Assembly: GCA_040389905.1 (NCBI GenBank)
Contig: JAZJZK010000007.1
Location: forward strand, 441,026-505,025
Direction of reading: 5' to 3'
DNA from: Gemmatimonadota bacterium
GTDB taxonomy: Bacteria > Gemmatimonadota > Gemmatimonadetes > Gemmatimonadales > Gemmatimonadaceae
Length of the DNA stretch: 64,000 bases
Within the stretch, counting starts at the first letter, position 1, and every line of letters begins with the position of its first letter. This document shows, in pieces, positions 35,950 to 56,274 of the stretch. The translations under genes and the position numbers were made by a program. The notes under the pieces are model-generated. The model saw only the letters and a list, made by a program, of their open reading frames with translations. It did no database searches and was not told the DNA's origin.

Positions 35950-37128
35950 ATGTCTCCTTCAAATTCGCAGGACGCGCTTACCCCGCGCCCGGAGCATCGC
36001 TTCACGTTTGGACTGTGGACTGTGGGGAATCCGGGGCGCGATCCCTTCGGCGACGCCGTGCGGCCCACGCTCACCGCGCCCTATATCGTTCGGAAGCTGG
36101 GTGCGCTTGGCGCATACGGCGTGAACTTCCACGATAACGATCTCGTGCCGCGCGATGCGACCTGCGCCGAGCGCGACCAGATCGTCAAGGAATTTCGCGA
36201 GGCGCTGGACGAGACGGGGCTCAAGGTGCCGATGGCAACCACGAACCTGTTCGGCGATCCGGTCTTCCGCGACGGCGCGTTCACGAGCAACGACGCGAAG
36301 GTCCGCCGTCACGCGTTGCAGAAGACGATGCGAGCGATGGACCTCGGCAAGGAGTTCGACGCGGAGACGTACGTGTTCTGGGGCGGTCGTGAGGGCGTCG
36401 AGAGCAACGCCACCAAGGATGCGATCGAGGCGACGAAGTGGTTCCGCGATGCGATCAACTTCCTCTGCGAGTACAACATTGCGCAGGGGTACAACTACAA
36501 GTTTGCGCTCGAGCCGAAGCCCAATGAGCCGCGCGGAGACATCTTCCTTCCCACGATCGGGCACGCGCTCGCCTTCATCTACACGCTCGATCATCCGGAC
36601 ATGGTCGGCGTGAATCCCGAGGTCGCGCACGATACGATGGCCGGGATGGATTTCTCGCACGGCGTCGCGCAGGCGATCGAGGCGAACAAGCTGTTCCACA
36701 TCGACCTCAACGCGCAGAAGCCCGGCCGGTACGATCAGGATCACCGCTTCGGTAGCGAGGACATCAAGCAGGCATTCTTCCTCGTGAAGTTGCTGGAAGA
36801 TTCGGGTTACGCCGGCATGCGTCACTTCGATAGCCATGCCTACCGAACGGAAGACGAGAAGGGCGTGTGGGATTTTGCGGCGGGCAGCATGCGGACCTAT
36901 CTCATCCTCAAGGAGAAGGTCGCACGCTTCAACGCGGACACGGAGATTCAGCAGATGCTGAGCGACTTGCGGGCGCGAGGCGCCGAGCCGGGCCAGCGCA
37001 TCAGCTACGCGAAGGACTCCGCGGCCATTCGCGACGAAACGTTCGATCTCGTCGCCATGCGCAACGCCGGTTACGCGTACGAACGACTTGACCAGTTGAC
37101 CGTGGAGATCATCCTCGGAGTGCGCTGA
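35950..37128 (+). CDS. xylA: xylose isomerase (short class I type)
   Basis: [47 protein letters not shown]. Confidence 0.96.
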
Positions 37129-37129
37129 A

Positions 37130-38632
37130 GTGGCCGACGCCCGTCAGCTGTTCCTCGGACTCGACGTCGGCACCAGCGGCGTCAAGGCAATTCTCGTGGC
37201 ACTGAACGGCGACGTCGCGGCCACCGCGACGTCGCCGCTCACCATGTCGACGCCGCAACCAGGTTGGGCGGAGCAGGACCCCGCAGCGTGGTGGGACGCG
37301 ACGCTGGCCTCGATTCACGCCGTGCGTCGCGCCTGCCCGGATGCCGCCATCGCTGCGGTTGGAATCTCCGGGCAGATGCACTCGTCGGTTTTTCTCGACC
37401 GCGATGGCGCCGTCATTCGTCCGGCGCTCCTCTGGTGCGATGGACGCACGACCGCGGAATGCGCGGAAATCACGGCGGCGGTCGGCGGAGAAGAGAAGCT
37501 GCGCGATCTCGCGTGCAATCCGGCGCTCGAGGGCTTCACGCTGCCCAAGGTGCTTTGGCTGAGAAAGCACGAGCCCGCCGCATATGCGCGGCTGGCCACC
37601 GTGCTGCTTCCGAAAGACTACATCCGGTATCGACTCACCGGGCAACTCGCGACCGATCCGTCAGACGCGTCGGCGACGTTGATGTATGACACGGCGAACC
37701 TTCGCTGGAGCGACGAAATCCTCGCTGCGGTCGGCGTGCCGCGCTCCATCGTGCCCGACGTTGGTGGGTCGTCGGAGATTCTCGGCCGCATCAATGCGCA
37801 GGCGGCGGCGCTGACCACGTTGCTCGAGGGCACGCCCGTCGTTGGCGGGGGCGCAGACAACGCATGTGGCGCGGCAGGCGTCGGCGCGACGACACCTGGC
37901 GAAGTCGTATCGAGTTGGGGCACGTCTGGCACGGTGCTGGCGCCAACCGTCGTACCGCTCGTCGATCCGGGTTTGCGCGCCCACACGTTCTGTCACGTCG
38001 CCCCTGGTGCGTGGTATCTCATGGGCGTGGTGCTGTCGGCTGGTGGCGCCTTCAGCTGGTATCGCGACCAGTTTGCCCGCGATGCCGGAGACGCACGTGA
38101 CGCGGACAGGAAACTCGACGAGGAAGCGGCGAGCGTTCCGCGCGGCGCCGGCGGCGTCACCTTCCTCCCGTACCTGCAAGGGGAGCGAACGCCGCATCGG
38201 GACGCAGCGGCTCGTGGCGCGTTGCTCGGGCTGAGCCTCGCACACAGTCGCGCGCATGCGACGCGCGCGGTGCTCGAAGGCATCACCTTCGCACTCCGGG
38301 ATTCCCTGACCATTCTCCAGGACCTCAAGCTCGCGCCGAGTCACCTGCTGCTGACGGGCGGGGGAGCAAAAAGCGCGTTCATCCGTCAGTTGCAAGCGGA
38401 GGTCTTCGGACTTCCCATCACCACGGTGAATCGCGAGGAGGGTCCTGCGTACGGCGCGGCGCTGCTCGCCGCGGTTGGGGCTGGCGCCTTCGCGGATCTC
38501 GGCGCGGCGGCGACGGCAACACTGACGCGCGCGCCGCTCGAGCACCCGGCGGAGGGCGCACACGAGGCGTACGCCGCCCCCTACGCCGCGTTCCGGCGTG
38601 CCTATGGTGCCGCGCGGGTGGATTTGCTGTAG
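37130..38632 (+). CDS. xylB: xylulokinase
   Basis: GLDVGTSGVK, SGQMHS, LWCDGRT, GTSG, PYLQGERTP, GGGAKS. Confidence 0.95.
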   Translation: MADARQLFLGLDVGTSGVKAILVALNGDVAATATSPLTMSTPQPGWAEQDPAAWWDATLASIHAVRRACPDAAIAAVGISGQMHSSVFLDRDGAVIRPALLWCDGRTTAECAEITAAVGGEEKLRDLACNPALEGFTLPKVLWLRKHEPAAYARLATVLLPKDYIRYRLTGQLATDPSDASATLMYDTANLRWSDEILAAVGVPRSIVPDVGGSSEILGRINAQAAALTTLLEGTPVVGGGADNACGAAGVGATTPGEVVSSWGTSGTVLAPTVVPLVDPGLRAHTFCHVAPGAWYLMGVVLSAGGAFSWYRDQFARDAGDARDADRKLDEEAASVPRGAGGVTFLPYLQGERTPHRDAAARGALLGLSLAHSRAHATRAVLEGITFALRDSLTILQDLKLAPSHLLLTGGGAKSAFIRQLQAEVFGLPITTVNREEGPAYGAALLAAVGAGAFADLGAAATATLTRAPLEHPAEGAHEAYAAPYAAFRRAYGAARVDLL

Positions 38633-38641
38633 CATTACCGA

Positions 38642-39676
38642 ATGCATCCAGTCGTTCGCCGCCTGGTCGGCTCGCAGGAGAGTGGACTCGTTCTCGTGGT
38701 GGTGCTCGTCACCGCCGTGCTGGCGTTGCTCGCGGGTTCGCATCCGGATCGCGCGACTGGCGCGCTGATCAACAACTTCTGGAACGCGAATACGCTCATC
38801 CAGACGGCCACCGACGCCAGCTTCTTTGCGTTGATGGCCATTGGCGCGACGATGGTCATCATCTCCGGCGGGATCGACCTCTCCGTGGGATCGATTTACG
38901 CGCTGGCCGGCGTGTCGCTTGGTCTTACGATGCGCGCGGTCGGGCCCATGGGCAGCAGCGCCACCGTGCTGCTCGGTTTCGTCGTGTGCACATGCGTCGG
39001 ACTGTTGTGCGGACTGCTCAATGGCGCACTCGTCGTTGGACTGCGTGTACATCCATTCATCATCACACTCGGCACGATGTGGGTGCTGCGCGGCATCGCA
39101 TTCGTCACGACGAAGGCCGAGAGCATCATTCTGCCGACCGCACTGACGTCGTTTAGCAAGGCGCCGCTTGGGTTGCGCGCCGGTCTGTATCCGGTGCCGA
39201 TGTTGTGCATGATCGCACTCACCGTCGTCGGTGCGATCTATCTGACACGGACCGTGATGGGCCGGCACATTTTCGCCTTTGGCGGCAGCACCGAGGCAAG
39301 TCGCTTTGCCGGACTTTCCCTCGGGCGCATTCAGATCGGCGTCTTTGCCGTGTCAGGGCTGACCGCGGGTATTGCGGCATTCCTCGGCGCCGGCTTCTAC
39401 GGTTCAGTCTCCTCGGGCGATGCGCAAGGATACGAGTTGTATGTGATCGCGTCGGCGGTCGTAGGTGGCGCGAGCCTGCTGGGTGGGAAAGGCAGCGCGG
39501 TAGGTGCGATGCTTGGTGCGCTGCTGATCGTTCTGTTCAGGCAGTCGATTCGGACGCTTCATTTCGATCAGAACTACGAGTGGATCGTGATTGGGTGTGC
39601 GATCATCATTGCTGTCGTGGTGGATCAGTGGAGTACGCGGGCGACCGCTCGAAGACTGACAAAGGCGGGGCATTAG
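38642..39676 (+). CDS. sugar ABC transporter permease (RbsC-like)
   Basis: SGGIDLSVGS, PFIITLG, EASRFAG, YELYVIASAVVGG. Confidence 0.93.
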   Translation: MHPVVRRLVGSQESGLVLVVVLVTAVLALLAGSHPDRATGALINNFWNANTLIQTATDASFFALMAIGATMVIISGGIDLSVGSIYALAGVSLGLTMRAVGPMGSSATVLLGFVVCTCVGLLCGLLNGALVVGLRVHPFIITLGTMWVLRGIAFVTTKAESIILPTALTSFSKAPLGLRAGLYPVPMLCMIALTVVGAIYLTRTVMGRHIFAFGGSTEASRFAGLSLGRIQIGVFAVSGLTAGIAAFLGAGFYGSVSSGDAQGYELYVIASAVVGGASLLGGKGSAVGAMLGALLIVLFRQSIRTLHFDQNYEWIVIGCAIIIAVVVDQWSTRATARRLTKAGH

Positions 39677-39710
39677 GATTCTCGTTTACTAAAGTGGTGT
39701 TGTCATTTTC

Positions 39711-39907
39711 ACCGCAGAGGACGCAGAGGCGCAGAGGATCGCAGAGAAAAGCTGAAAGGCGCAACAGCAGGTGCGGGCCCTTCGCTAATGCTCCGGACGA
39801 CAAAACGAGCATGATGTCACCCCGAGCGAGCGAAGCGAGGGCCTCACTTTTCGAAACGAGTTTTTGAAGCCCTCTGCGCACCTCTGCGCCTCTGCGCCCT
39901 CTGCGGT
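39711..39907. repeat. composite family C/D palindromic element, inverted homologue of 14534-14724
   Basis: ACCGCAGAGGACGCAGAGGCGCAGAGG ... CCTCTGCGCACCTCTGCGCCTCTGCGCCCTCTGCGGT; interior GCAACAGCAGGTGCGGGCCCTTCGCT...GACAAAACGAGC...TGTCACCCCGAGCGAGCGAAGCGAG matches the reverse complement of the 14.6 kb interior. Confidence 0.88.
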
Positions 39908-39963
39908 AGAAAGACGGTAGATGCTCGATTGGCGGTACCAACCAAGAACCGGGAATTGACGAT

Positions 39964-41013
39964 ATGAACAATCGATTCATTCGAAGAACGGCGGCGTTGC
40001 TCGTCGTAGGCGCCTGGACCATGGCCTGCTCGAAGGGCGCCGAGAAAGCCGGTGACACCGCTGGTGTGGCGCCCGCCGCTGTGCCGGCGGCAGGCGGCAA
40101 GATCATCATCGCCGTGATCGGCAAGAGCTCCGACAACCCCGTCTTTCTCGCCGCGCGTACCGGCGCCGAGGAAACCGCGAAGAAGATCTCCGACAGTACC
40201 AAGGTGCCCGTCGAGATCATGTGGCTGACACCGGCAAAGGAAGACGCCGAGGTGCAGGCGCAGCGCATTCGCCAGGCGGTGAATGATGGTGCGGCCGCCG
40301 TTCTCCTCTCTGCGTCGGACGCCGGAAAAGTTACCGGCGCGATCAATGACGCAGTGGACCGCGGCGTTCCGGTGATGATGTTCGACAGCGACGCGCCCGC
40401 CTCCAAGCGTTTTGCGTTCTATGGAGCCGACGATGCGAAGACCGGCGCCGGGGTGATGTCGGAGCTCTCGACGCTCATGGGCGGCAAAGGCAAGGTCGCC
40501 ATCCTCGCTGGCAACCAGAACGCGCCCAATCTTCAGGCCCGCGTCAAGGGCGTGAAAGATGAAGCGGCGAAGCACCCGGGCATCAGCATCGTTGGCGTCT
40601 TCAACCACAACGAAGCCCCGCAGGACGCCGCGGCTGAAGTCGTCCGCGTCAACAACGCGTACCCCGAGATTACCGGCTGGGCGATGATCGGCGGCTGGCC
40701 GTTGTTCACGCAGACACTGCTGACCGATCTCAACCCGGCGAAGATGAAGGTCGTGTCTGTCGACGCCCTGCCCGCCGAGTTGGCGTATGTCGAAAAGGGG
40801 ATCGCGCCAGTGCTTCTGGCGCAGCCGGTCTACCTGTGGGGCTCCATCGGCGTGCAGACGCTCTTTGCCAAGGTGCACGACAAGAAGGATCCTGCGCAGC
40901 CCATCATGACGATGGACCTCATTCGCGTCACGAAGGCGAATCTCGGCGAATACTCCCGTCAGTTGAAGGCGTGGGGCTTCACGGGCATCGACGAGAAGTA
41001 CCTCAAGATGTAA
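39964..41013 (+). CDS. sugar ABC transporter substrate-binding lipoprotein
   Basis: Lipobox TMA-C; NPVF, VMMFDSD, GNQNAPNLQARVKG (RbsB-like fold). Confidence 0.9.
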   Translation: MNNRFIRRTAALLVVGAWTMACSKGAEKAGDTAGVAPAAVPAAGGKIIIAVIGKSSDNPVFLAARTGAEETAKKISDSTKVPVEIMWLTPAKEDAEVQAQRIRQAVNDGAAAVLLSASDAGKVTGAINDAVDRGVPVMMFDSDAPASKRFAFYGADDAKTGAGVMSELSTLMGGKGKVAILAGNQNAPNLQARVKGVKDEAAKHPGISIVGVFNHNEAPQDAAAEVVRVNNAYPEITGWAMIGGWPLFTQTLLTDLNPAKMKVVSVDALPAELAYVEKGIAPVLLAQPVYLWGSIGVQTLFAKVHDKKDPAQPIMTMDLIRVTKANLGEYSRQLKAWGFTGIDEKYLKM

Positions 41014-42506
41014 TGGTAAGCGAGCCCGCGGTTCGGCTGACGAACGTCAGCAAACGCTTTCCTGGCGTTCAGGCATTGAGCGGCGTCTCCATCGAGATCG
41101 CCGCGGGCTCGTGTCACGCCCTCTGCGGAGAAAACGGCGCAGGGAAAAGTACCCTCGGTAAGATCCTCGCCGGACTTCAGTCACCCGACGAGGGGCAACT
41201 CTTCGTGTTCGGTCGTGAGGTGCACTTCGCGTCGCCGCACGACGCGCTCGCCGCAGGCATCGCAATGGTGCACCAGGAGCTCGCCTTCTGCGAGAACATG
41301 ACCGTCGCCGAGAATCTCTGTCTCGGCGCCATTCCGACGCGGCGCGGCTTCGTCGACCGCGCCGAGATGCACCGGCGGGCGCTCGCGCTGCTCGCAGAGA
41401 CGGGCACGACGCTCGACGTCGACGGGCGGCTGGGTGATCTCTCGATCGGCAACCGGCAGATGGTGCAGATCGCGTCGGCAGTCGGTGGTGGTGCTCGTAT
41501 CATCGTCTTCGATGAACCGACGAGCAGCCTCAGTCAGGCCGAGGCGGAGCGGTTGTTCGCGCTGCTCGCTCGGCTGCGCGAGCGCGGCGTCACGTGCATC
41601 TACGTGTCGCATCGCATGCCGGAGATCTTTGCACTCTGCGACACGGTCAGCACCCTGCGCGACGGCGGGCACGTCGCAACGCGCGCGACGGCCGGACTTA
41701 CGGAGGGTGAACTGGTCGAGCTGATGATCGGTCGGCCCATTGCGGAGTATTTCCCACCGCACGACCAGCGGCCGCGTGGCGACGAGGTGCTTCGCGCAGA
41801 ATCGCTGAGTGTGGTCGGCCGCTTCGAAAACATTTCCCTGCGATTGAACGCTGGTGAGGTCGTCGGCTTGGCAGGCCTTATGGGCGCAGGCCGTTCAGAG
41901 GTCGCGAGCGCGTTGTTCGGCCTCGAGCCCCTCGCCGCGGGCACCATCTATCTGCGCGGCGTCGCCGTGCACATCGCCGGGCCGCAGGACGCGATTCGCG
42001 CCGGCATCGGTTTCGTGCCTGAGGATCGAAAGCGGCAGGGGCTGGTGCTTTCGGAAAGTGCGTTACACAACACGTCGCTTCCCACGTTGAAGCGTCTCTC
42101 GAAGCTGTCGTGGATTTTTCGCGCGAAGGAGCGACGCCAGGCGAGCGACCTGTTCGATCGTCTGCGCGTTCGCACGCCGTCGTTGGACGCCGTGGTGGCG
42201 GGTCTGTCTGGCGGCAACCAGCAGAAGGTCGTACTCGCGAAGTGGCTCGCGGCTCGGCCGAGTATCCTGATTCTCGATGAGCCCACGCGAGGTGTTGACG
42301 TCGGTGCAAAGGCGGAGATTCACGCGTTGATCGGCGAGCTGGCTGCGGCGGGTACGGCGATCCTCGTGATCTCGAGTGAGCTGCCGGAACTGCTCACGCT
42401 GTCGGAGCGCATCCTCGTTTTGCGCGAAGGACGGCTCGTCGGCGAGCTGCCTCGCGCCGACGCAAATCAAGCGGCGTTGCTCCGGTTGATGGCTGGCGTC
42501 GCGTAG
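41013..42506 (+). CDS. sugar ABC transporter ATP-binding protein (two NBDs, RbsA-like)
   Basis: GENGAGKST, FDEPT, LSGGNQQK, LDEPTRGVDVGAK; ATG overlaps the SBP stop. Confidence 0.95.
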   Translation: MVSEPAVRLTNVSKRFPGVQALSGVSIEIAAGSCHALCGENGAGKSTLGKILAGLQSPDEGQLFVFGREVHFASPHDALAAGIAMVHQELAFCENMTVAENLCLGAIPTRRGFVDRAEMHRRALALLAETGTTLDVDGRLGDLSIGNRQMVQIASAVGGGARIIVFDEPTSSLSQAEAERLFALLARLRERGVTCIYVSHRMPEIFALCDTVSTLRDGGHVATRATAGLTEGELVELMIGRPIAEYFPPHDQRPRGDEVLRAESLSVVGRFENISLRLNAGEVVGLAGLMGAGRSEVASALFGLEPLAAGTIYLRGVAVHIAGPQDAIRAGIGFVPEDRKRQGLVLSESALHNTSLPTLKRLSKLSWIFRAKERRQASDLFDRLRVRTPSLDAVVAGLSGGNQQKVVLAKWLAARPSILILDEPTRGVDVGAKAEIHALIGELAAAGTAILVISSELPELLTLSERILVLREGRLVGELPRADANQAALLRLMAGVA

Positions 42507-42509
42507 CGA

Positions 42510-43307
42510 ATGAGGAGCACCCGTCGCACGATCGTCATGGCCGCACTGCTATTACTGGCGTGCGCCGCGGCGGCCGCAGCGCAGCGAACCGCGCGTCTGA
42601 CCGGCATTGTCCGCGATACGGCGCACAACGTCCTCAGCGACGTCGTCGTGCAGGTGTTCTCCCAGCGCGATGAATTGCTGGCGACGACGCGAAGCGACGT
42701 GCGAGGTGTCTATAATGTCGATCTAGCCGAGCGGGGCGGGGCCCGCCTGCGTGCGCGACGACTTGGCTTCCAGGCGTTTGCCTCTGGCGACATAGTGCTC
42801 AGCGCGGATTCTGCCTCGCGACTCGACATCACCTTGGTACCAGTCGCCCAGCGGTTGGGTGAAGTGATCGTCAAGGCAGAATCGAATCGTTCGGTCTTTC
42901 TCGAGCGCGCCGCGGCCGGAGGGCGACACGCGCACTTTATCGATTCGACGTCGTTGGCAGGGAGAGACAAGCGCAGCATGCTCGTGCTCTTCAACCAGTT
43001 GTCAGGCACGAGCATCCATGTCGGCACGCCCGTGCAAGGAGGGCGGGGCGTGAGCTACCGTCCAGCTGAAGGCGGAGATGTACTCATGGGGCCCGGCAAC
43101 TGTGTGGCGACGGTGTACGTCGACGGATGGCTCACCGGCGCGGCGGAGTTGAGACGCGTTCTTCGTGCGCCCGAAGTGGCGGGCATCGAGATCTACGATG
43201 TGCCTGCGCTGGCTCCCTTTCCGTATCGCCCCGATACGCTGGCCAAATGTCCGATCGTGTTGATCTGGAGCGGCGCGGGATTCTCATGGGAGCCGCGGAA
43301 GTGGTAG
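42510..43307 (+). CDS. secreted protein: carboxypeptidase-regulatory-like domain plus TonB plug-like domain
   Basis: Signal peptide; LTGIVRD...TRSDVRGVY...ARRLGF; C-x3-YVDG...VAGIEIY...C-x-IVLIW. Confidence 0.72.
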   Translation: MRSTRRTIVMAALLLLACAAAAAAQRTARLTGIVRDTAHNVLSDVVVQVFSQRDELLATTRSDVRGVYNVDLAERGGARLRARRLGFQAFASGDIVLSADSASRLDITLVPVAQRLGEVIVKAESNRSVFLERAAAGGRHAHFIDSTSLAGRDKRSMLVLFNQLSGTSIHVGTPVQGGRGVSYRPAEGGDVLMGPGNCVATVYVDGWLTGAAELRRVLRAPEVAGIEIYDVPALAPFPYRPDTLAKCPIVLIWSGAGFSWEPRKW

Positions 43308-43357
43308 AACCTGACGCCGTCGCGAGCCGCGCGAGTTAGATAGATAGAGAGATAGCA

Positions 43358-43603
43358 TCAGCTTCCTTTCGCCCGTTCTTGATACACGCGCATCAGTTCA
43401 CTGACGAGAATCCCATGGATGCTCATGCCGCTGAGATTGGCGTTCGTGATTGATGCGCCGCTCAGATTCACGTCGTCGAAGGTCGCGCCGGCGAGGTTGA
43501 TGTTGGTGAACGTCGCCCGGTGCAGGTTGACGTCATCGAACACGGACTCCGACAGGTCGGCATCGTGAACGGCAAGCTGGTCTTTGACATGTTCGATATT
43601 CAT
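43358..43603 (-). CDS. small pentapeptide-repeat protein
   Basis: ADLSE SVFDD VNLHR ATFTN INLAG ATFDD VNLSG ASITN ANLSG. Confidence 0.85.
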   Translation of the reverse strand: MNIEHVKDQLAVHDADLSESVFDDVNLHRATFTNINLAGATFDDVNLSGASITNANLSGMSIHGILVSELMRVYQERAKGS

Positions 43604-43808
43604 GATTGCAGCTCGGTGACGGTGACTGGGCAGGGAGGGCGGCGAGTGAGCTACCAAACAGCCGCAAGCGGAGTTGTCCTGATGAACCTGGCGTGGTTGC
43701 GATCTGGTTTGTCGATGTAGGTAACTTGCCGATGTGGGTATATGCAATGAATCGCGTGCCGTGCGGCGGACGTCGTCGCGTTGGCGGCAGATTCCAGGCG
43801 ACGGCGGT

Positions 43809-44410
43809 CACGCTGCGCCAAAACGCCTGCACAACGCGTCCACGGCGTGTGGCAACGCGGACGATCTGCTCTGCAGTGCGGACGAGGTGCTCTGCGCCGC
43901 GCCATTTTCGCCGCGCGTCGCGCCTCGTCGGGTGAGCAGTGCTTCAACTGCTCGTCTACAATGCGCTTGGCTGCCTCTGCGGTGCGCACGGCCGTCTGCG
44001 CAATGCGCCAAAACATCGTTGCCGTGCGCAAAGTGCCCTTTGCGATGTTTCGGGTGTGCTGCGCACCCGGTACACGTTGCTGCGCATCGCGCCAACGTCG
44101 GTGAGCATCGCGGACGGACGCGTCAGCAGTGCGGACGAACGCTTCAACATTGCGGACGAATCGCTATGCAATGCGTCAACAACGTTCCCCACTGCGCCAG
44201 GAATGTTGGGCACCGCGGACGGCGTGCTGCGCAGTGCGGACGGCGTGGTGATCAATGCATCCGCGCCGGTGCGCATTGCGTCCGGCTTGCTCAACACCGC
44301 GCCACGTTGTGTGTGCCATGCGGACGGTTTGCTCGTCACTGCGCCTCACACACGGAGCAGTGCGCCCAAAGCGCTCATCACTGCGCACAAATTGATTGGC
44401 AGCCTGCCCA
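43809..44410. repeat. degenerate 21-bp tandem array (about 29 units) with quasi-palindromic core GCANYGC and an inverted internal block
   Basis: Cores at exact 21-nt steps: 43810-43936 (7 units), 43958-44042 (5 units, reversed), 44063-44399 (17 units). Confidence 0.88.
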
Positions 44411-44568
44411 AATCCTTTGTTCAGTGAACGCGCCGATCACCGTTCTTCCTGCCCGGATGCCGCTGCAGCCTTATCATCACACAACGTTGCCGGCGTGGCG
44501 TAGCGTCATCAACGCCTGGGGTCTGGCGCGCGAGCCACGCACCCGGCGACACAACGGCAGCAGGCGGA

Positions 44569-44632
44569 AGTCATGCGCAAATATGACCTCTTATCACCCT
44601 ATTGATTTCCCACATTGTTGGTGCGAATACTT
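44569..44632 (+). promoter_or_regulatory. conserved promoter module, copy 1 (GTCAT-N8-ATGAC, TTGATT-N18-AATACT)
   Basis: 47/64 ungapped identity to 56191-56254. Confidence 0.75.
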
Positions 44633-44750
44633 GATCCAGTCCCGAGCCGAGTGAAGGCACCGGCCCTCATTGTTCTCGCGCAATCGCTCTCGCGCGTAGC
44701 GCAATCCGACGGGATCCGCTCCGTTCGCGCCCTCGCAGTTCTTATCCACA

Positions 44751-46082
44751 ATGAAGAGTCAGAGGAGCATCGTTGTGAAGACCCTCTCCCGAAGCCCAAG
44801 GCTGGCGTTGACGCTCAGTCTGTTGGCCCTGCCCGCAAGTGCGCAGCAGAAGCTGGCCACACTGACCGTCACCCTCGACAGACCGACCAGCGGCCTCGAC
44901 GTTCCCGCCAGCTTCAATCTGGATGAACTGACAAAGCTCGACGCGCCAGGTCTTTCCCTCGTGGAAGTGTCCGGGAAGACCAAGACGCCAATTGCCTTTC
45001 AAGTGGACAAAGGCGGCAAGACCCGCATGATCTACTGGATGGTCAATCACACGTCCGATGGTGCCAAGTCCAGAACGTATGAGCTGGCGGCCGCCAAGAC
45101 CGCTGCCGCTCAGGGCGGCGTCGCGATCACGGACAAGGACGAATCGCTGGTGTTCGCCGCAGGCGGAACGGATCTTCTGTCATTCAAGTACGGCGTGCAA
45201 AAGATGCCGGCGAACTTCGTCGAACGGCCCAACGGCAAGGCGATCAACTATGCGCGTGGCGGTTTCATTCATCCGCTCAAGTCGCCGACGGGGCAGGTGC
45301 TCACACGCATCAACGCACCCGATCACTGGCATCACTACGGCATCTGGAATCCGTGGACGCATGCCCACGTGAACGGCAATCCGGAAATCGTCGATTTCTG
45401 GAATATCGGCGATGGCAAGGCAACCGTTCGCCTGGACAAGACGAAGGATGTGCTGTCAGGCCCCGTGTTCGCGGAAGCGAAGGCGGATCTCAGTGCGCTG
45501 CAGCTGAATCCCGACCGCAGCATCAAGGTCGACGCGCTGGGTGAAACGCAGACGATGCGTGTCTACCAACCGCAGGGCAAGCAGTCGTACATCTTCGACT
45601 TCACGAGTGTGTTGAGCCCCAGAGTCCCGTTCACGATCGTCGCCTATCGCTACGCGGGCTTCGGCTGGCGTGCCACACCCGAGTGGAATGCGACCAACAG
45701 TGAAATGATCACGTCGGAAGGGATCGACGTGAGATCGAAAATCAACGGAACGCGGGCGCGGTGGTGTATCGTGCAAGGAATGACGGGCGGTGAATACGCC
45801 GGAGCGGTCGTGCTTTCCAACCCAGAGAACCACAGCCATCCTGAAGCGATGCGAGTGTGGGATGAAAAGAACACCAACGCGCGCGACAGTGGACCCGGCG
45901 CCGTGTTCTTCAACTTCAACCCGGCGATGGAAGAAATCACGCCGGACTGGCCGCTCGAAGTGGGCAAGAGCTACGAACTGAAGTACCGCATGATTGTCTA
46001 TACGGGCAAGTTCACGCCGGCGATGGCGGAAAGTGCCTGGCAGTACTACGCCAAACCGGCCACAGTTGTCGCAAAGAAGTAG
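44751..46082 (+). CDS. secreted PmoA-like/DUF6807-type protein
   Basis: Signal peptide; RGGFIHPLKSPTGQVLT, DHWHHYGIW, DFWN, YRYAGFGWRA, NPENHSHPEAMRVW. Confidence 0.72.
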   Translation: MKSQRSIVVKTLSRSPRLALTLSLLALPASAQQKLATLTVTLDRPTSGLDVPASFNLDELTKLDAPGLSLVEVSGKTKTPIAFQVDKGGKTRMIYWMVNHTSDGAKSRTYELAAAKTAAAQGGVAITDKDESLVFAAGGTDLLSFKYGVQKMPANFVERPNGKAINYARGGFIHPLKSPTGQVLTRINAPDHWHHYGIWNPWTHAHVNGNPEIVDFWNIGDGKATVRLDKTKDVLSGPVFAEAKADLSALQLNPDRSIKVDALGETQTMRVYQPQGKQSYIFDFTSVLSPRVPFTIVAYRYAGFGWRATPEWNATNSEMITSEGIDVRSKINGTRARWCIVQGMTGGEYAGAVVLSNPENHSHPEAMRVWDEKNTNARDSGPGAVFFNFNPAMEEITPDWPLEVGKSYELKYRMIVYTGKFTPAMAESAWQYYAKPATVVAKK

Positions 46083-46098
46083 ACGCCAACCTCCTCTG

Positions 46099-46131
46099 GA
46101 GATCGCCCCGCGGTTCGGGGCGATTTCTTCT
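46099..46131 (+). terminator. intrinsic terminator-like hairpin
   Basis: GAGATCGCCCCG-CGGTT-CGGGGCGATTTC followed by TTCT. Confidence 0.6.
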
Positions 46132-46315
46132 GGTGAGAGTGCCAGTTTCAGGATCACTAAGAAACCAGCGGTTCAACGGTTGCGCGCGTAAGGTGATATG
46201 GTGACTCTGGAAGATCCTCGATCCAGATTCCTCTCAGCAGCTTCATTGGCGAGTCGTCTGCACGACGCCCGTCATGAAGGACTTGGTGGCTCGAAATCCC
46301 CCACGGCCCCGACTT

Positions 46316-47443
46316 ATGATTCCACCCCTTGTTTCACTGGTAACCGTCCTCGCGGCCTCGGTCGCGCCACCCGTTCCGTTGGCGGACACGGTCATCCAGA
46401 TCAGCGCAATCCAGGGAATGCACTTCAGCCTGCCTCGCTTCGAGGTCGCGCCCGGCATGAAAGTGACGATCGTCTTCCGAAATATGGATTCGCAGGCCGA
46501 CATGCCGCACAACCTGGTCATCATGCGACCGGGGACGCGGACGAAGGTGATAACCGCGGCGCTGCAGGCCACGGCAAAGCAGGAGTATATCCCTGTCACT
46601 CGTGACATCCTTTTCAAGACACCGTTGGTCGTGCAGCGTGAGAGCTTCACGCTCACCTTCACCGCACCGGCTGCCAAGGGCGCCTATCCGTATGCATGCA
46701 CCTTTCCGGGGCATGGCTTCGTGATGTACGGGGCGATGTATGTGGGCACCACGCCGCCGCCGCTGGCGACCGATGAAAATGTGCCGCCGGAACAGCGCGT
46801 CCCGCCGCCCGCTGGACGAGGTGGCGGCCGAGGCGGCCGAGGTGGCTTGCCTCCCGGTCCGCGCCCGATATCCGCCGGGGCGATCTCATACGGTTCCACG
46901 TTCCCGGCGGTGTCGCGCACCTTCCTCGCGGATAATGGCCCAGCGTCGATCGCGGTCGCGCTCACCCCGCAGCGGTCGTACAACTTCGACGCCGGCGTGT
47001 CGTATTTCCGACAGGCCTGGGACGGCGGCTTCGTCGACAACTACCCGCACTGGCGCGGAAATGGAGACGGCTACGCCGATGTCATTGGCAAGGTCTGGTA
47101 CCACAGCAAGGCGAACTTCCCCTGGCGTGTGAGCGCTCCCGACTCCATTCCGGAGGCGCGCTTCCTCGGGTATCGTCTGGTGCAGGGCGGATACCCCGAG
47201 TTCCACTACAAGATCGGTGATGCCGATGTGCGCGAACTGGTGTTGCCCCGCGAAGGCGGCTCCGGCGTCGTGCGCAATTTCGAGATCACGACCACGCATC
47301 CGTTGCGCTTCATCACGGATCCCGAGGGCGGTGCGAATTTCTCGGCATCGGCAGGCCAGATGCAGGGAAAGGTGCTCACGCTCACGCCCGAGCAGGCGCG
47401 CAAATTCAGCATCACCATGACCCCAGCCGCACCACTACCATGA
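46316..47443 (+). CDS. azurin/auracyanin-like type-1 copper domain fused to an uncharacterised beta-rich domain
   Basis: MPHNLVI...YPYACTFPGHGFVM (H, C, H, M ligands); P/G/R-rich linker; second domain RTFL...SIAV...SYNFD...AWDGGF...FLGYRL...PEFHY. Confidence 0.85.
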   Translation: MIPPLVSLVTVLAASVAPPVPLADTVIQISAIQGMHFSLPRFEVAPGMKVTIVFRNMDSQADMPHNLVIMRPGTRTKVITAALQATAKQEYIPVTRDILFKTPLVVQRESFTLTFTAPAAKGAYPYACTFPGHGFVMYGAMYVGTTPPPLATDENVPPEQRVPPPAGRGGGRGGRGGLPPGPRPISAGAISYGSTFPAVSRTFLADNGPASIAVALTPQRSYNFDAGVSYFRQAWDGGFVDNYPHWRGNGDGYADVIGKVWYHSKANFPWRVSAPDSIPEARFLGYRLVQGGYPEFHYKIGDADVRELVLPREGGSGVVRNFEITTTHPLRFITDPEGGANFSASAGQMQGKVLTLTPEQARKFSITMTPAAPLP

Positions 47444-47466
47444 CGCCAACCGTGGGAGGGCACGCG

Positions 47467-49020
47467 ATGAGAACTTGCACGCTTTCGCTCATCCTCGGGC
47501 TCGCTGTTGTCGCGACGCCCGCGGCGGTCAGCGCCCAAGGTCGTCAAGGAGCGCCACCACCGGCTCCCGGCGCAGTCGCCCAGACACCGGCGAACTACCC
47601 GTATACGATCGAGAAAATACCCACGCCGGATAGTCTCTCGGCGGAAGTGGGAGGCATCGGCTTCCTTCCCGACGGCCGCGTTGTCGCCGCGTTCCACCAC
47701 GGCGAGGTGATGATCTACGATCCGGCGAAGAAAGACTGGAAGGTCTTTGCCACGGGTCTGCACGATCCGCTCGGCCTCGTCGTCATCAGTGCGAGCGAGA
47801 TGATCGTCGGGCAGCGTCCCGAAGTCACGCGCATCAAGGATACCGACGGAGACGGGAAGGCCGACACGTTCGAGACGCTGAGCGATCAATTCGGCATGTC
47901 GGGGAACTACTCCGAGTTCCTCCACGGTCCCATCATGGACGCGGAGGGAAATCTCTTCTACTCCCTCAACACCGCGTCGAACAACGGACCGGTCCGCAAG
48001 ATCATCCGTGGCACGTACTCACCGCGTGGACGCATCGGCCGCATGTTCTCGGCCGTCGACTACCGCGGATGGGTGATGAAGATTACCCCCGACGGAAAGA
48101 CCATCCCCTACGCGGGCGGATTCCGTTCGCCGAACGGCCTCGTTCTCGATAAGGACGGTGACCTCTTCGTCACCGACAATCAGGGAGACTGGCTGGGAAG
48201 CAGCAAGCTGTACAAGGTGGATCAGGGCAAGTTCTACGGGCACACGCCCAGCCTTGCGTGGGACCCGGCGATCAACACCACCCCGACGACCATCCCCATC
48301 CCCATTCTCGACAAGATGCGCCAACGGGAGATCGTCTTCTTCCCCCACGGCATCCTGGCGAACTCGCCGACGATGCCGCAAATCGACTACACGGGCGGGA
48401 AGTTCGGACCCTTCGGCGGCCAGATGTTCGTTGGCGAGATGAACCATCCCCTGATCATGCGGGTGATGCTGGAAGAGGTGAATCACGAGTTCCAGGGGGC
48501 GGTCGCGCCATTCCTCAGCCAGCCCAACTTGCGGCTGGGGAGCAACCGTCTGGCCTTCGCCCCGGACGGCTCGCTCTGGGTGGGCCACACCGACCACGGC
48601 TGGCTCGGCGACAAGGGAATCACTCGTATCAGTTGGAATGGCCAGACGCCGCTGGATGTCTCTGCCATGAACCTGACGACACACGGCTTCGATCTCACGT
48701 TCACGAAGCCGGTGAATGCTGAGGTCGCGGCGAAGTTGGCGACGTATCAGTTCCGTAAGTACTCCTACGAATACCACCTCGATTACGGCTCCGACCGGAT
48801 GGATCAGGGACCGGTGGCTGTGACCAAGGTGGTGGTGTCGCCTGACGGCCTTCACGCTTCGCTGACGCTGGCGGAATTGCAGCCGAAGTTTGTCTATCAG
48901 CTCGATCTTGTCAGCCTGACGGGAACCGATGGGGCCCCGCTCGTGAACTCGACCATCTATTACACGATCAATCAGCTCCGTCAGCCCGGCGCGGCGCCCA
49001 CCATAGCACCTCGGCGATAA
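47467..49020 (+). CDS. secreted beta-propeller protein (sorbosone-dehydrogenase-like/DUF7133-like)
   Basis: GGGAGG RBS; signal peptide; FATGLHDPLG, DTDGDGKAD, GFRSPNG, TDNQGDW, GKFGPFGGQMFVGE, RLAFAPDGSLWVG. Confidence 0.75.
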   Translation: MRTCTLSLILGLAVVATPAAVSAQGRQGAPPPAPGAVAQTPANYPYTIEKIPTPDSLSAEVGGIGFLPDGRVVAAFHHGEVMIYDPAKKDWKVFATGLHDPLGLVVISASEMIVGQRPEVTRIKDTDGDGKADTFETLSDQFGMSGNYSEFLHGPIMDAEGNLFYSLNTASNNGPVRKIIRGTYSPRGRIGRMFSAVDYRGWVMKITPDGKTIPYAGGFRSPNGLVLDKDGDLFVTDNQGDWLGSSKLYKVDQGKFYGHTPSLAWDPAINTTPTTIPIPILDKMRQREIVFFPHGILANSPTMPQIDYTGGKFGPFGGQMFVGEMNHPLIMRVMLEEVNHEFQGAVAPFLSQPNLRLGSNRLAFAPDGSLWVGHTDHGWLGDKGITRISWNGQTPLDVSAMNLTTHGFDLTFTKPVNAEVAAKLATYQFRKYSYEYHLDYGSDRMDQGPVAVTKVVVSPDGLHASLTLAELQPKFVYQLDLVSLTGTDGAPLVNSTIYYTINQLRQPGAAPTIAPRR

Positions 49021-49062
49021 CGGCAGCGTACGAGCATTTTCAACCTCGAAAGGATACCTAGC

Positions 49063-49527
49063 ATGCGCTCTCCACGTATCGCTCTCGTGCTCGCCTTCCT
49101 GTTGGGCGGCACGTCCGTCGCGGCTCTCCACGCCTCCTCCGTCATGGACGAACTCCTGAACACCACCGTCTACCAATGGAGCACGCTTCGCGCGCAGGAG
49201 TCGGCGAGTGGGTCCACGCGTCAGTACTTTGACCGACCCACGTCATCCCTTCTCGGGCTCGCGCTCCGCGCCCGCACCGTGGCTCCTGGGGCAACGCCAC
49301 ACCCGATCGTGCCGAACTCCGGCCCGCGCGAGCTGGTGCTTATCGTGAAGGAGGGCGTGCTCGAGATCAAGCTCGGCGACAAGGCGCCGGTGAAGATCGA
49401 TGCCGGGTCGGCGGTGTTCCTCGCGTCGAATCAGGTCTACTTCATTCGCAACAAGGGCACTACGCCGGCGACGTACTACGAGTTCAACTGGTTGTCACCG
49501 GGAATGGCCGGCGAACGACAGTACTGA
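49063..49527 (+). CDS. secreted cupin-domain protein
   Basis: Signal peptide; PGATPHP...ELVLIVKEGVLEI...AGSAVFLASNQVYFIRN. Confidence 0.78.
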   Translation: MRSPRIALVLAFLLGGTSVAALHASSVMDELLNTTVYQWSTLRAQESASGSTRQYFDRPTSSLLGLALRARTVAPGATPHPIVPNSGPRELVLIVKEGVLEIKLGDKAPVKIDAGSAVFLASNQVYFIRNKGTTPATYYEFNWLSPGMAGERQY

Positions 49528-49683
49528 CGGAGTTCGAGCTCGCGTTGCAGCTTTGAGCCGGAGCCATGAGCCTGAGCGCGAGCTTCCAGCATTGAGCTGA
49601 TGAGCGCTCTAAGCTCAAGCTCCGCGTTGCTCATTACTGACGCCGTCATCGCGAACGTCGACGGCCTGATGATTGTTCCGCAT

Positions 49684-49809
49684 CTGACCGACAGCACGGT
49701 GACGAGGCTCGCGGCATTTCTGAGAGCGCTCACGGACCCGGCGGCGCGCACGCTGGCGACGACCGTTCCCTCGCGCGTGCCGAGTGGAATACCGGTCGGT
49801 CCCCCGTAG
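49684..49809 (+). pseudogene. C-terminal remnant resembling a di-haem cytochrome c peroxidase/MauG-family protein
   Basis: LTDSTVTRLAAFLRALTDPAARTLATTVPSRVPSGIPV; no upstream CxxCH-containing body. Confidence 0.5.
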
Positions 49810-49822
49810 GGGGAACGCGGGA

Positions 49823-49878
49823 TTGACACAGTCGAGCCAGGGCGCATATACTCAGAGCGCTACCATAGCGATCTAAGT
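49823..49878 (+). promoter_or_regulatory. sigma70 promoter and probable PadR operator
   Basis: TTGACA (49823)-N18-TATACT (49847); imperfect dyad CATAG-CGAT-CTAAG just before the PadR ATG. Confidence 0.6.
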
Positions 49879-49880
49879 AT

Positions 49881-50210
49881 ATGCCTCCAGCGAACTCCGC
49901 ACAGACGGCGCTCGACATGCTCGTGTTGACGATCCTCAGTCGCCGCGGGCCATCCCATGGCTACGGCATCGCCAACGCCATCCAGGACCTCTCGAAGGAT
50001 GCACTCCGCATCGACGAAGGCTCGCTCTACCCCGCGCTCCATCGCATGGAGGAGGCCGGGTGGATCGCGGCGGAATGGACGGTCACCGAAAACAAGCGCC
50101 GAGCGCGCCTGTATCACCTCAGCAAGGCCGGCGCGACGCAGCTCGAAGCAGAACGGGAGCGCTGGACAGTCTTCTCGGGGGCGGTCGCCCGAGTCCTCCG
50201 CTACGCGTAA
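49881..50210 (+). CDS. PadR-family transcriptional regulator (acidobacterial type)
   Basis: HGYGIA, EGSLYPALHRME, W-x2-TENKRRARLY. Confidence 0.93.
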   Translation: MPPANSAQTALDMLVLTILSRRGPSHGYGIANAIQDLSKDALRIDEGSLYPALHRMEEAGWIAAEWTVTENKRRARLYHLSKAGATQLEAERERWTVFSGAVARVLRYA

Positions 50211-50227
50211 CCTTAACCGAGAGAGCG

Positions 50228-52894
50228 ATGTCCTGGTTCACGCGGCTGCGTAACAGCGTCTTGCCTCAGCGAATGGACAACGATCTTCTCGAGGAGATCC
50301 GCGATCACATCGACCGGCGCGAATCTGATCTGCGCGCGAGCGGGTTGAGCGAATACGAAGCGCGGCGGCAGGCCGTGTTGGCGTTTGGCAGCGTAGCCAA
50401 CGTCCGGGCGGAGAGCCGCGCGACCAAGCTGTGGGCGAACTGCGAAGGAACGATTCAGGACACGCGTTATGCGTGGCGCGGCCTGGTTCGCAATCCGGCG
50501 TTCACCATCACAGCCGTGCTTTCGCTCGGACTCGCCATCGGCGCGAACGCCGCGATCTATGCGCTCGTCGACGCTGTCGTGCTGCGCCCGCTACCGGTTC
50601 CATCGCCCGACCGATTGTTCACGCTCGAAGTGCGTGGCCAGACTCCGTCAGGATCGCCCACGAGCAGCGAGAACGCCGCCTTCAGCTTCCCTTTGTACAC
50701 AGCACTGAACTCCGCCGCCGACGGTTCTGCGCGCATCGCCCTTTTCGGGTCTCCGTCCCGTGTCGACGTGCAGGGCAGTGACGCCGAGGCTGCGCCCGAT
50801 GCGGCGCTTCAGCAGTTCGTCTCCGTCACGGCCTTCGACGTCATCGGCGTCGCGCCTGAGGTCGGCCAGTTCTTTTCGACCGCTGAAGACCAGGCCACAT
50901 CGCCACGCGCCGTTGTCATTCTCAGCTACGACTTCTGGCGGCGTCGCTATGGCGCCGATTCCGCCGTCGTGGGCAAGCCGCTCGTGTTCGGTGGAAAGCG
51001 CCACGAGATCATCGGCGTCGCGCGCGCCGGGTTCACCGGAGTCGAAGCGGGGAAGTACATCGATGTCTGGCTTCCCATCACGCTCGCGGATCCAGGCCTT
51101 CTTGCTCAGCCCGAGGCACGAGCCTTCCAGCTGCTGGGTCGTCTCTCGCACGGGATCACGCGCGAATACCTCAGTGCGCGGCTACAACCCGTGTTTCGTC
51201 AGCATCAGGTGGAGCGGTCTGCAACGAAGACGGCGACGGAAAAGCGGGAATTGATCACGACATCGCTCGAGGCGCTGCCCGGCGCCAACGGCCTTGCGTC
51301 ATTCCGTCGTACGTGGTTGCTGCCGCTGATGACGCTCCTTGGAATCGCCGTCGGGGTACTGCTGATCGCGTGTTCCAACGTCGCCAGTCTGCTACTTGCA
51401 CGAGCCTCGGCGCGCTCCAGCGAAATCGCACTCCGGGCGGCGCTCGGTGCGGGACGCACGAGGCTCGTGCGACAGATCCTCCTCGAAAGCGTTCTGGTCG
51501 CCGTGCTCGCGACATCCCTTGGTTGGCTGACGTCTCGCGTGCTTGCGCCGATGCTTGTCTCGCTGACGTCAAGTCAAGGTGATCCCATTCGCCTGAACCT
51601 CTCGTCCGATGCGCGCGTACTTCTCTTCTGCGCAGGAATCTGCGCGCTCGCGGCGTTCATGAGCGGCGCGTTGCCTGCATGGCGTGCGACTGGAGTACAT
51701 CAGACGTCGATGCGCAGCTACATGTACGAGCACGCTGGCCGATTGCGCCTCGGACGCACAGTCGTTGGGGCGCAGGTTGCGTTCGCGTTCTGCCTCGTCG
51801 TGTGGGGCGCAGGTTTTGCGCTCAGCTTACGCACGTTGACATCCGTCGACGCAGGGTTCGATGCGACTGGCGTTGTCGTCATGACCGTTGCCAATGATCT
51901 TGGCCCGCAACAGCGTGCCCTGCAGCTTTCGCTGATGCAGCAGCTTCAGGCGCGATCGGCGTCGCTCCCCGGCTCACAAGCCGCAGCCACCGCCTGGATG
52001 CCGATGTTCTCCGGAGGCCGTCGCGCGGAGCGCGTGGTGCTGCCCGGCAGAGCGCCGTCGGCGCGCGGTGAGACGTTCTATCGCGTCTCGCCGGGATTCC
52101 TCGCAACCTTGCACACGCCGCTTCTCAGCGGCCGAGATCTGCTGGCAACAGACGACGACACCGAACCTGTCGCGACGATCGTCAATCGCACATTTGCGGT
52201 ACGCTACTTCGGAACCGAATCGGCTATTGGCCGTGAATTCCAGCGTGTCGATGGTGCGCGTCATCGCATCGTGGGCATTTCCGGCGACGCGCGGTTCGAG
52301 GACCTGAAGGGCGGTGCCGAAGCGATCGCTTACATGCCCATGAAACCGCCACGTTGGTTCACGATGTATGTGCGGTCGACGCGCGACGCTGCCTCTGTTG
52401 CCCAGATGGTGCAGCGTGAAGCGCGGGCACTTGGCTCGGGCCTGCGCGTCACTGGTGTGACGACCGTCAGCGAGTTGGTCGACAGCACGATGCGGAGAGA
52501 GCGGCTCCTTGCTGGCATCGGCGGTGTCTTTGCGTTCCTGGGGCTGGTCCTCGCCGCGATCGGCTTGTTCGGACTCTTCTCCTACTCCGTTGCACGGCGC
52601 ACGAAGGAACTTGGCATTCGGTCGGCGCTTGGCGCGGCGCGAATGAACCTGTTGCGGCTCATCTTCAAAGATGAGATGGTGGTCATCGCTGGCGGTCTGG
52701 TGGCCGGACTCGCAGTAGCATTCTCCTTCGTACGCGTCGTTCGCTCGCTGCTTTTCGGCACGCAGCTCGCCGATCCCGCAGTCATCGCTACCGCGCTCGG
52801 CGTGTTCGTAGCCGCAGCGATGATTGCGTGTGTTATTCCCGCTCTGCGAGCGACGACAATCGATCCGATACTAGCGCTGCGTCGGGAGAGCTGA
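50228..52894 (+). CDS. ADOP-type duplicated ABC permease (MacB_PCD/FtsX x2)
   Basis: EEIRDHI, QDTRYAWRGL, LAIGANAAIY, IACSNVASLLL, EIALRAALGA, RRTKELGIRSALGA. Confidence 0.92.
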   Translation: MSWFTRLRNSVLPQRMDNDLLEEIRDHIDRRESDLRASGLSEYEARRQAVLAFGSVANVRAESRATKLWANCEGTIQDTRYAWRGLVRNPAFTITAVLSLGLAIGANAAIYALVDAVVLRPLPVPSPDRLFTLEVRGQTPSGSPTSSENAAFSFPLYTALNSAADGSARIALFGSPSRVDVQGSDAEAAPDAALQQFVSVTAFDVIGVAPEVGQFFSTAEDQATSPRAVVILSYDFWRRRYGADSAVVGKPLVFGGKRHEIIGVARAGFTGVEAGKYIDVWLPITLADPGLLAQPEARAFQLLGRLSHGITREYLSARLQPVFRQHQVERSATKTATEKRELITTSLEALPGANGLASFRRTWLLPLMTLLGIAVGVLLIACSNVASLLLARASARSSEIALRAALGAGRTRLVRQILLESVLVAVLATSLGWLTSRVLAPMLVSLTSSQGDPIRLNLSSDARVLLFCAGICALAAFMSGALPAWRATGVHQTSMRSYMYEHAGRLRLGRTVVGAQVAFAFCLVVWGAGFALSLRTLTSVDAGFDATGVVVMTVANDLGPQQRALQLSLMQQLQARSASLPGSQAAATAWMPMFSGGRRAERVVLPGRAPSARGETFYRVSPGFLATLHTPLLSGRDLLATDDDTEPVATIVNRTFAVRYFGTESAIGREFQRVDGARHRIVGISGDARFEDLKGGAEAIAYMPMKPPRWFTMYVRSTRDAASVAQMVQREARALGSGLRVTGVTTVSELVDSTMRRERLLAGIGGVFAFLGLVLAAIGLFGLFSYSVARRTKELGIRSALGAARMNLLRLIFKDEMVVIAGGLVAGLAVAFSFVRVVRSLLFGTQLADPAVIATALGVFVAAAMIACVIPALRATTIDPILALRRES

Positions 52895-56026: not shown

Positions 56027-56190
56027 CGTCCTGTGCGATCGTGGTGAGTAAGAGTGGGCGACGCCGTCACGTTCAAGTCGGCGGAAAGGTAGATACACCT
56101 CGACCGTCCGTCGACCACAACGCGTGCGGCACCAACTTGGTTCACCACGATCAGAGGCGCGTCGCGCGTATCAGCGCGCAGCAGAGCAAA

Positions 56191-56254
56191 AGTCGTGTGC
56201 GAACATGACCTCTTGTCCGCATCTTGATTTCGCGCCTTGCCATGGCGAATACTT
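56191..56254 (+). promoter_or_regulatory. conserved promoter module, copy 2
   Basis: AGTCGTGTGCGAACATGACCTCTT-N9-TTGATTTC-N13-GCGAATACTT, collinear with 44569-44632. Confidence 0.75.
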
Positions 56255-56274
56255 CCGATTGTCCCGACACCCGA

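Follow-up and report, generated by a model that had tools for sequence, protein, structure and literature searches.

A gene-less array of 21-nucleotide repeats as a copy of the upstream array of a helical-protein gene module and a possible DNA docking strip

Bacterial tandem repeats that keep their length but not their sequence are a published puzzle. As far as the accessible text of their 2021 paper goes, Subirana and Messeguer describe bacterial repeats of constant 20–21-nt length, note that such a unit covers two helical turns and suggest a polymerizing protein, for which that text offers no candidate (PMC8161180). The same puzzle is posed by a block of DNA in the 64,000-nt stretch of a Gemmatimonadota contig analysed here (the window), which an earlier note had read chiefly as a shufflon-like element with an inverted segment: what is an array of divergent 21-nt units doing in a gap without a gene? 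We found that the array belongs to this repeat class, which is known but unexplained; what is new here is a parent module, apparently unpublished, and a candidate reader that can be tested. Our main reading, to which we give a probability of about 0.5, is that the block is a gene-less copy of the array of that module and serves as a DNA docking strip bound every two helical turns, with the helical protein of the module itself as the predicted reader.

The periodicity of the array was confirmed by autocorrelation. At lags of 21, 42 and 63 nt, identity is 0.49, compared with 0.27 ± 0.013 (maximum 0.32) in 1,000 dinucleotide shuffles of 43950–44410. The count of about 29 units of 21 bp was correct: there are 29, with cores at 43810–44399, seven of them in a first 21-nt register and 22 in the next (Table 1). 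The 1-nt register shift described on the left side is also real, and consists of one +1 step at about 43943–43955. The array had been placed correctly at 43809–44410, although the block that is homologous to the second copy described below is slightly wider (43804–44459). The core columns, for which the pattern GCANYGC had been given, are 83–100% conserved, but the strict pattern fits only 13 of the 29 units. The 14-nt spacers had been called largely different; they in fact include flank columns that are 75–92% conserved, and they are therefore not CRISPR-like spacers. Tandem Repeats Finder reports just 57 nt of the array because its units are too diverged (mean pair identity 0.48). In agreement with the view that the gap holds no recognizable gene, the two array-spanning open reading frames (ORFs) that were searched had no significant match in Pfam or NCBIfam. 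No homologue of the array DNA was found in the 100 relatives searched, and metagenome contigs gave a single exact 22-nt match, which we judged to be due to chance. We are highly confident in the anatomy of the array as an orphan that is non-coding and not inverted.

Table 1 Positions of the array, its parts and its flanking features in the window
Feature	Position	Strand	Remark
Block that carries the array, a copy (without gene) of the array found upstream in the helical-gene module	43804..44459	(-)	Strand given is the gene-sense strand in the twin
Seven 21-nt units, first register	43803..43949	.	Cores 43810-43936
Single 22-nt step (+1 register shift)	43943..43955	.	Common to twin
22 units of 21 nt, one register and one orientation	43951..44412	.	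Cores 43958-44399; includes the five units earlier called inverted
Whole 21-nt unit	44130..44150	.	In window, missing from twin
Short non-repeat end	44413..44459	(-)	Common to twin; lies 5' when read in gene sense
Flank: pentapeptide-repeat gene, 81 aa from inner ATG	43358..43603	(-)	PF00805, E 3.4e-12
Flank: decayed duplicate of 43011-43177 (3' part of carboxypeptidase-regulatory-like gene)	43610..43773	(+)	Outside element
Flank: DUF6807 gene	44751..46082	(+)	PF14100, E 5.3e-50

The inversion had been inferred from five units that seemed to read backwards and from palindromes at the two junctions, as would suit a shufflon or mini-cassette that diversifies by inverting at palindromic cores. 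Against a profile built from the other 24 units of the window array, all five disputed units favoured the forward orientation, by 4.9 to 8.3 bits; four of the same five did so in the second copy, with the fifth tied (−0.4). The core is indeed near-palindromic in the window lineage, with a reverse-complement profile match of 0.42 compared with 0.50 for the profile itself, and this makes single units look reversible by eye; it also allows one of the 24 undisputed units to score slightly better reversed. Palindromes of this sort belong to the normal make-up of the units: along the array, TGCGCA is found eight times, and AGCAGT-N6-ACTGCT is not retained in the second copy. That copy, 15% diverged, keeps the identical unit order, and several other arrays of the module lack palindromic cores altogether. 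Logan contigs of three runs, which drop rare variants, contained no strand-changing joint. The genes that flank the window array (CarboxypepD_reg, pentapeptide and DUF6807) include no site-specific recombinase, inspection of 36000–52000 revealed no recombinase-like ORF, and an integrase adjoins only one of 37 module loci scanned. With no inverted block, a second copy arranged alike, no joint in the contigs and hardly an integrase in the neighbourhood, the flip finds no support, and we consider a shufflon extremely improbable. Units are gained and lost whole, probably by slippage or unequal exchange and not by inversion.

The affiliation of the block is indicated by its second copy. BLAST against the source genome (G000) returned one homologue, at G000:C6:118075–118710, with 85% identity over 657 columns. 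This twin has its units in the same order as the window, shares the +1 step and carries exactly one 21-nt unit fewer, and the similarity ends sharply at 43804 and 44459. The C6 array ends 326 nt upstream of a minus-strand gene for a helical protein of ~230 aa (P0004). At the place of the promoter, leader and gene of the twin, the window has a decayed piece of a neighbouring gene and the pentapeptide-repeat gene, and a permissive profile search found no remnant of the helical gene there (E 0.65). The window copy is an orphan, without promoter, leader and gene, and it may do nothing. In Logan contigs of the probable source run, both versions of the array are found at similar depth (~13–19) and each window junction is crossed with no difference; the right junction also has an exact match in a 197-nt contig from another study. 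Because the longest identical stretch shared by the two copies is 35 nt, mis-phasing by the assembler is unlikely.

A second pair of paralogous arrays repeats this pattern. A gene-linked array (C12:194031–194851) and an orphan (G000:C53:64550–65348) share 87% identity, which is confined to the array and stops at its ends, and one of them is a whole unit longer. With homology ending at the array ends in both pairs, we infer that the array was either copied or retained as a unit. C12 also holds an identical duplicate of 1,273 nt (181754–183026 and 193300–194572) whose end falls inside the array, either through recent duplication or as an assembly artefact. The DUF6807 orthologue in another genome, G048 (83% identical), has no array upstream; this locus, the sole close DUF6807 orthologue among 54 genus members, was rejected as a clean empty site, as its upstream gene differs. 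Further gene-less 21-nt arrays with other cores lie at G000:C7:212.2k, C8:229.5k, C41:33.1k, C14:139-140k, C53:68.2k and C2:23.9k. Among these, only the C14 array keeps a faint remnant of the helical gene (E 0.003); it also adjoins a pentapeptide-repeat-like ORF.

One mobile element has a similar make-up. BrickBuilt of Porphyromonas gingivalis is, according to the accessible text, a minisatellite MITE present in 19 copies, with 23-nt units and terminal inverted repeats matching the IS5 family; it forms dispersed intergenic blocks in which short tandem units are bounded by short ends without repeats (Klein et al. 2015, PMC4596501). By contrast, the window family consists of two copies with divergent 21-nt units. 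None of the 25 longest of 54 inverted pairs formed a terminal inverted repeat joining the block ends, and inspection of the boundaries of either copy showed no direct repeat that could be a target-site duplication. A BrickBuilt-type MITE was rejected on these two grounds.

The arrays are tied to the helical gene well beyond this pair. Six intact paralogues of the gene are encoded in the source genome, and upstream of every one there is a 21-nt signal. The family was found in 25 relatives out of 101 and, across the phylum, in 49 of 201 genomes, with 1–13 copies; in the phylum set it is limited to two families of one order and is patchy in Gemmatimonadales. Named records come from Gemmatimonadaceae and Gemmatimonadales, the Atlas points to Gemmatimonadota, and a profile search collected 6,454 clusters at 50% identity; no relative was found in plasmids or viral contigs. 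Using the 99th percentile of 2,995 random genome windows as the threshold, we detected the 21-nt signal upstream of the gene in 31 of the 38 distinct loci whose flanks were long enough (25 of 32 when the six loci of the source genome were left out) and downstream in 0 of 39, counts that overstate independence because the loci are related. A fresh set of 20 loci gave 16 of 19 upstream and 0 of 16 downstream. No array exceeded the threshold at 7 of the 38 and 3 of the 19 loci. A slightly stricter threshold leaves only 28 peaks in the 5.1-Mb genome as a whole, and the 21-nt period is therefore no general property of intergenic DNA. The tallies for the family, linkage, sigma-54, pseudoknot and palindrome/skew/ECF include two unpublished genomes (G012 and G132), and no claim depends on either.

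The spacing of the units is kept across these arrays, whereas their sequence is not. Arrays hold 10–31 copies with a mean unit identity of 0.30–0.70, and the unit consensus varies by locus and is palindromic in some only. In 31 arrays, we counted 479 steps of 21 nt, 16 of 22, three of 23, one of 20 and none of 18 or 24, with in-frame steps penalized in the same way as ±2 steps; +1 slips outnumber −1 slips by 16 to 1. The proteins of C6 and C12 are 67% identical, yet their arrays share no BLAST similarity, so the cores turn over faster than the protein. Within pairs, the cores change more slowly than the variable columns: window and twin differ at 8 of 189 core positions compared with 35 of 251 in variable columns, and the C12/C53 pair at 4 of 168 compared with 37 of 237. 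The constraint on the orphan was not significant when tested against half the variable-column rate (p 0.23), and neither was that in the second pair.

The same data bear on a coding reading, in which the array would be a heptad-repeat (coiled-coil) gene, either decayed or cryptic, or else a leader peptide. The pattern [DSG]-A-[LVM]-x4 appears in one frame of the minus strand, two plus-strand frames are free of stops over 43946–44427 in both copies, and some read-through extensions of the helical protein (P0065 and P0158) look heptad-like. However, substitutions fall evenly on the three codon positions (28/26/21 between window and twin, 30/29/27 between C12 and C53). The 499 steps include 20 that break the frame and none that would keep it, all three gene-sense frames of the window copy contain stops, and frames without stops are equally common on the antisense and sense strands (12 and 13 of 21). 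A per-frame comparison of window and twin found no frame under purifying selection: pN/pS was 0.83–1.35 in all six frames over 43946–44427. Single blocks gave lower values: two frames of the right block had 0.67 and 0.72, and three frames of the middle block (115 nt, 12 differences) had 0.35–0.49, but these blocks agree on no common frame. A period-3 test of column conservation was set aside because both coding controls failed it. With substitutions that are blind to codon position and slips that break the frame, the array is therefore non-coding, and a heptad gene is very unlikely, although the heptad-like frame and extensions mean that the array may have a remote coding origin. The helical proteins with long N-terminal extensions show a 7-residue period there in five of five database representatives, as if translation had been carried through the array. 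In 19 longer homologues, neither FN3 nor any other domain was found.

Between the array and the gene lies a promoter-like motif. In the first set, a sigma-54-like site was present at −93 to −159 in eight loci. The pattern was defined on this set, and we count only its position-restricted version on the fresh set, in which 11 of 19 loci have such a site 98–137 nt before the start codon and downstream of the array, and no downstream control has one. With looser patterns, the first set gave no usable contrast (18 of 38 upstream versus 11 of 39 downstream, and 9 of 38 versus 11 of 39). RpoN is encoded in the source genome. The promoter region of the twin has no sigma-54 site (score 5.8; 95% of the null, 8.1) and instead contains two copies of another promoter-like motif with a TGTGG[AG][AT]AA box, 200 and 114 nt before the gene (L001); C12 has the motif at 194929, 195262 and 195367. 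Of 38 module genes, eight have the box in the 1 kb upstream, and none of 39 downstream regions has it; its genome rate is 0.004 per kb. Most of its copies fit the reverse complement of the DnaA-box consensus.

The leader between promoter and gene is structured in many loci. An H-type or kissing pseudoknot, in which a hairpin loop pairs with a segment ending 20–30 nt before the start codon, was found by an explicit H-type search in 14 of 38 leaders, compared with 5% of 380 shuffles and 11% of 276 control leaders. Its strands vary in sequence on both sides yet stay complementary. Minimum-free-energy folds showed it in only 1 of 38 because they used the same pairs in nested form. The pseudoknot is present in the twin and absent from the window. 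Rfam gave no match at E up to 0.5 in eight loci that hold arrays and leaders, and we regard the leader as undescribed. In 10 of 63 distinct loci (L046, L048, L050, L053 and L093 among them), a distinct type of ECF-like sigma gene precedes the helical gene by 0.1–1.05 kb, on one strand or the other; five of the ten served to build the ECF profile, and in some loci the sigma gene lies beyond the array. The source genome has no close member of these sigma genes (best 56 bits). The other neighbours of module loci, apart from the single integrase, are unrelated housekeeping genes, according to a scan of 118 of 142 listed ORFs at 37 loci with flanks of 1.5–2.5 kb; most of the omitted ORFs overlie arrays.

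This layout is also relevant to a different explanation, in which the array acts as RNA: a promoter beyond its far end would drive its transcription, and the basic helical protein would bind its units singly, as in type III toxin–antitoxin systems. In line with this explanation, the array is invariably 5' of the gene where it is detected, promoter-like TTGACT or TAGTAGG motifs precede some arrays (by eye and regex), the gene-sense strand is T-poor overall (2,161 A versus 1,601 T), and the conserved pseudoknot leader shows that the module uses RNA structure. Where a sigma-54-like site separates array and gene, as it does in the 11 fresh loci, the array is however outside the mRNA. Gibbs-sampler motif discovery before and after 21 arrays yielded nothing above shuffles, hence no common upstream motif; folding gave no consistent signal (z −0.76 for the window, mean z −0.56 over 21 arrays); and the strand skew is seen in just 20 and 22 of 31 arrays. 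In the twin, moreover, no terminator-like site lies between array and gene.

The type III systems toxIN, cptIN and tenpIN themselves have units of 31–62 nt in about 2–6 copies, followed by a terminator, in the account available to us (Blower et al. 2012, PMC3401426). They resemble the intact modules (the window copy being gene-less) in having tandem repeats upstream of a single small gene and a pseudoknotted RNA in the locus. They differ from the module as far as that account describes them, since its divergent units are 21 nt long and number 10–31, a promoter-like site follows the array and, in the twin, the one locus examined for it, there is no terminator. No ToxN/CptN/TenpN-like endoribonuclease chain was among the fold matches listed for the helical protein, the protein has no Pfam or PADLOC match, and its model is all-helical. 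We rejected a type III toxin–antitoxin locus on unit length and on the missing terminator of the twin locus, and we regard an RNA function of the array as unlikely.

The predicted reader is a basic protein of ~230 aa without a Pfam domain. AlphaFold2 gives a confident all-helical model (pLDDT 91) with two helices of ~55 residues, each of which would, by textbook rises, be about as long as 21 bp of DNA. The pI is at least 9 in 28 of 28 aligned members; arginine-rich proteins are common in GC-rich genomes, so a high pI is weak evidence. In the same 28 members, one tryptophan alone is invariant and no catalytic motif is apparent. Searches of Pfam, PADLOC and PDB sequences returned no significant match, and the fold search ended among generic helical rods (best Foldseek E 0.1; best VIA Z 9.7), with no known DNA-binding protein. 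DUF6261, an Atlas lead under 0.9, was rejected as the identity of the protein, as it has no match in the source genome. The NCBIfam family PQLLE (NF052641) has a model of similar length (211 positions) and matches 15 of 28 members weakly, at E up to 1 and in both protein halves. Its best score, by contrast, is 20.7 bits (E 2.7e-4) against a cut-off of 80, with 9.7 bits in the genome search, and PQLLE is at most a distant relative. A literature search that was thin in subscription journals found no paper on the module or its parts, or one that names the PQLLE family.

Taken together, these observations make a phased binding platform, which the earlier note had also proposed, the best reading of the array, and they give it a context: arrays upstream of promoters, tolerance of +1 slips and a cognate basic protein that is predicted to bind. 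In the intact module, the order would be array, promoter (of sigma-54 type in many loci, with the other motif in the twin), pseudoknot 5' leader and gene. Where a sigma-54 site follows, the array would sit where activators or repressors act, and its occupancy could set transcription from the adjoining promoter in a feedback control, so that the module would be autoregulated through its predicted cognate reader, with the pseudoknot as a second control. Core sequences could turn over while the spacing holds, and detached arrays such as that of the window might act as extra binding sites or be left-overs. The far greater tolerance of +1 than of −1 slips, together with the sparing of the cores, fits cooperative protein binding on one face of the helix. 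Fast core turnover, on the other hand, is hard for a sequence-specific reader, and it leaves room for another one, such as a sigma-54 activator or a nucleoid protein. The helical protein as reader of the array is thus a tentative candidate, possible but at less than even odds.

Docking has to be weighed against a minisatellite that has no function or is selfish. Its 21-nt step would stem from the copying mechanism and its core conservation from exchange between units, and it would travel with the gene, being copied or left behind as a whole. Such a minisatellite would account for the sharp-ended array-only copies in two of two paralogous pairs, the nine gene-less arrays examined versus six gene-linked ones in the source genome, the fast core turnover and the lack of significant constraint on the orphan. 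The same period and position, by contrast, recur across two families with unrelated unit sequences. Neutral bacterial DNA has a deletion bias, and the 16 slips of +1 versus one of −1 are opposite to it. Conversion between units would give an excess of own-neighbour matches and of clustered differences, but we saw neither (76 versus 80 of 256, and 15 versus 15.9 expected). We hold a functionless or selfish minisatellite to be distinctly unlikely.

The docking reading invites comparison with partition systems. In plasmid centromeres and iterons such as parC and parH, phased direct repeats adjoin a gene whose small basic product coats the repeats and is a repressor of its own promoter. The module differs in that no partition NTPase or Rep gene was found among 118 neighbouring ORFs of 37 loci with flanks of 1.5–2.5 kb, no plasmid or viral match was obtained, and the protein is modelled as a long helical rod and not as a ribbon-helix-helix or helix-turn-helix protein.

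The likeness to the constant-length repeats is closer. In the accessible text, those repeats have a fixed 21-nt unit, variable sequence, a short motif per unit, a non-coding and lineage-specific nature and several families per genome (PMC8161180). Here, 479 of 499 steps were 21 nt, and the arrays were non-coding, had a short conserved motif and different cores at other loci, and found no DNA match in 100 relatives. That text, by contrast, names no linked gene and does not mention Gemmatimonadota, whereas the present arrays are tied to one gene family with a promoter and a pseudoknot leader. The array class is now associated with one large uncharacterized protein family, a defined promoter position and an undescribed leader, and the idea of a polymerizing protein becomes testable with one purified protein and one DNA fragment. 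A bolder version is conceivable and, in our estimate, improbable: the module would be an undescribed, self-contained system in which the rod protein polymerizes on DNA in 21-bp steps chosen by spacing more than by sequence, gene-less copies would nucleate the same polymer, and the module would be the parent of the 20–21-nt repeats across bacteria. For annotators, ORFs called over such arrays and N-terminal heptad extensions of the helical gene are probably artefacts.

Other repeats were seen alongside the array. Window positions 44552–44712 and 56172–56350 are similar upstream regions (72% over 130 nt), probably a regulatory leader shared by two secreted-enzyme genes and unrelated to the array. 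Short tandem repeats of 8–9 nt occur in facing pairs at 39713–39746, 39869–39905, 14536–14560 and 14688–14719. Genes at 35950–42506 probably encode xylose isomerase, a sugar kinase and a sugar ABC transporter. Elsewhere in the genome, heptamer tandem repeats lie at G000:C66:4424-4530, C35:6475-6540 and C33:14283-14380, and short REP-like repeats are abundant and dispersed genome-wide.
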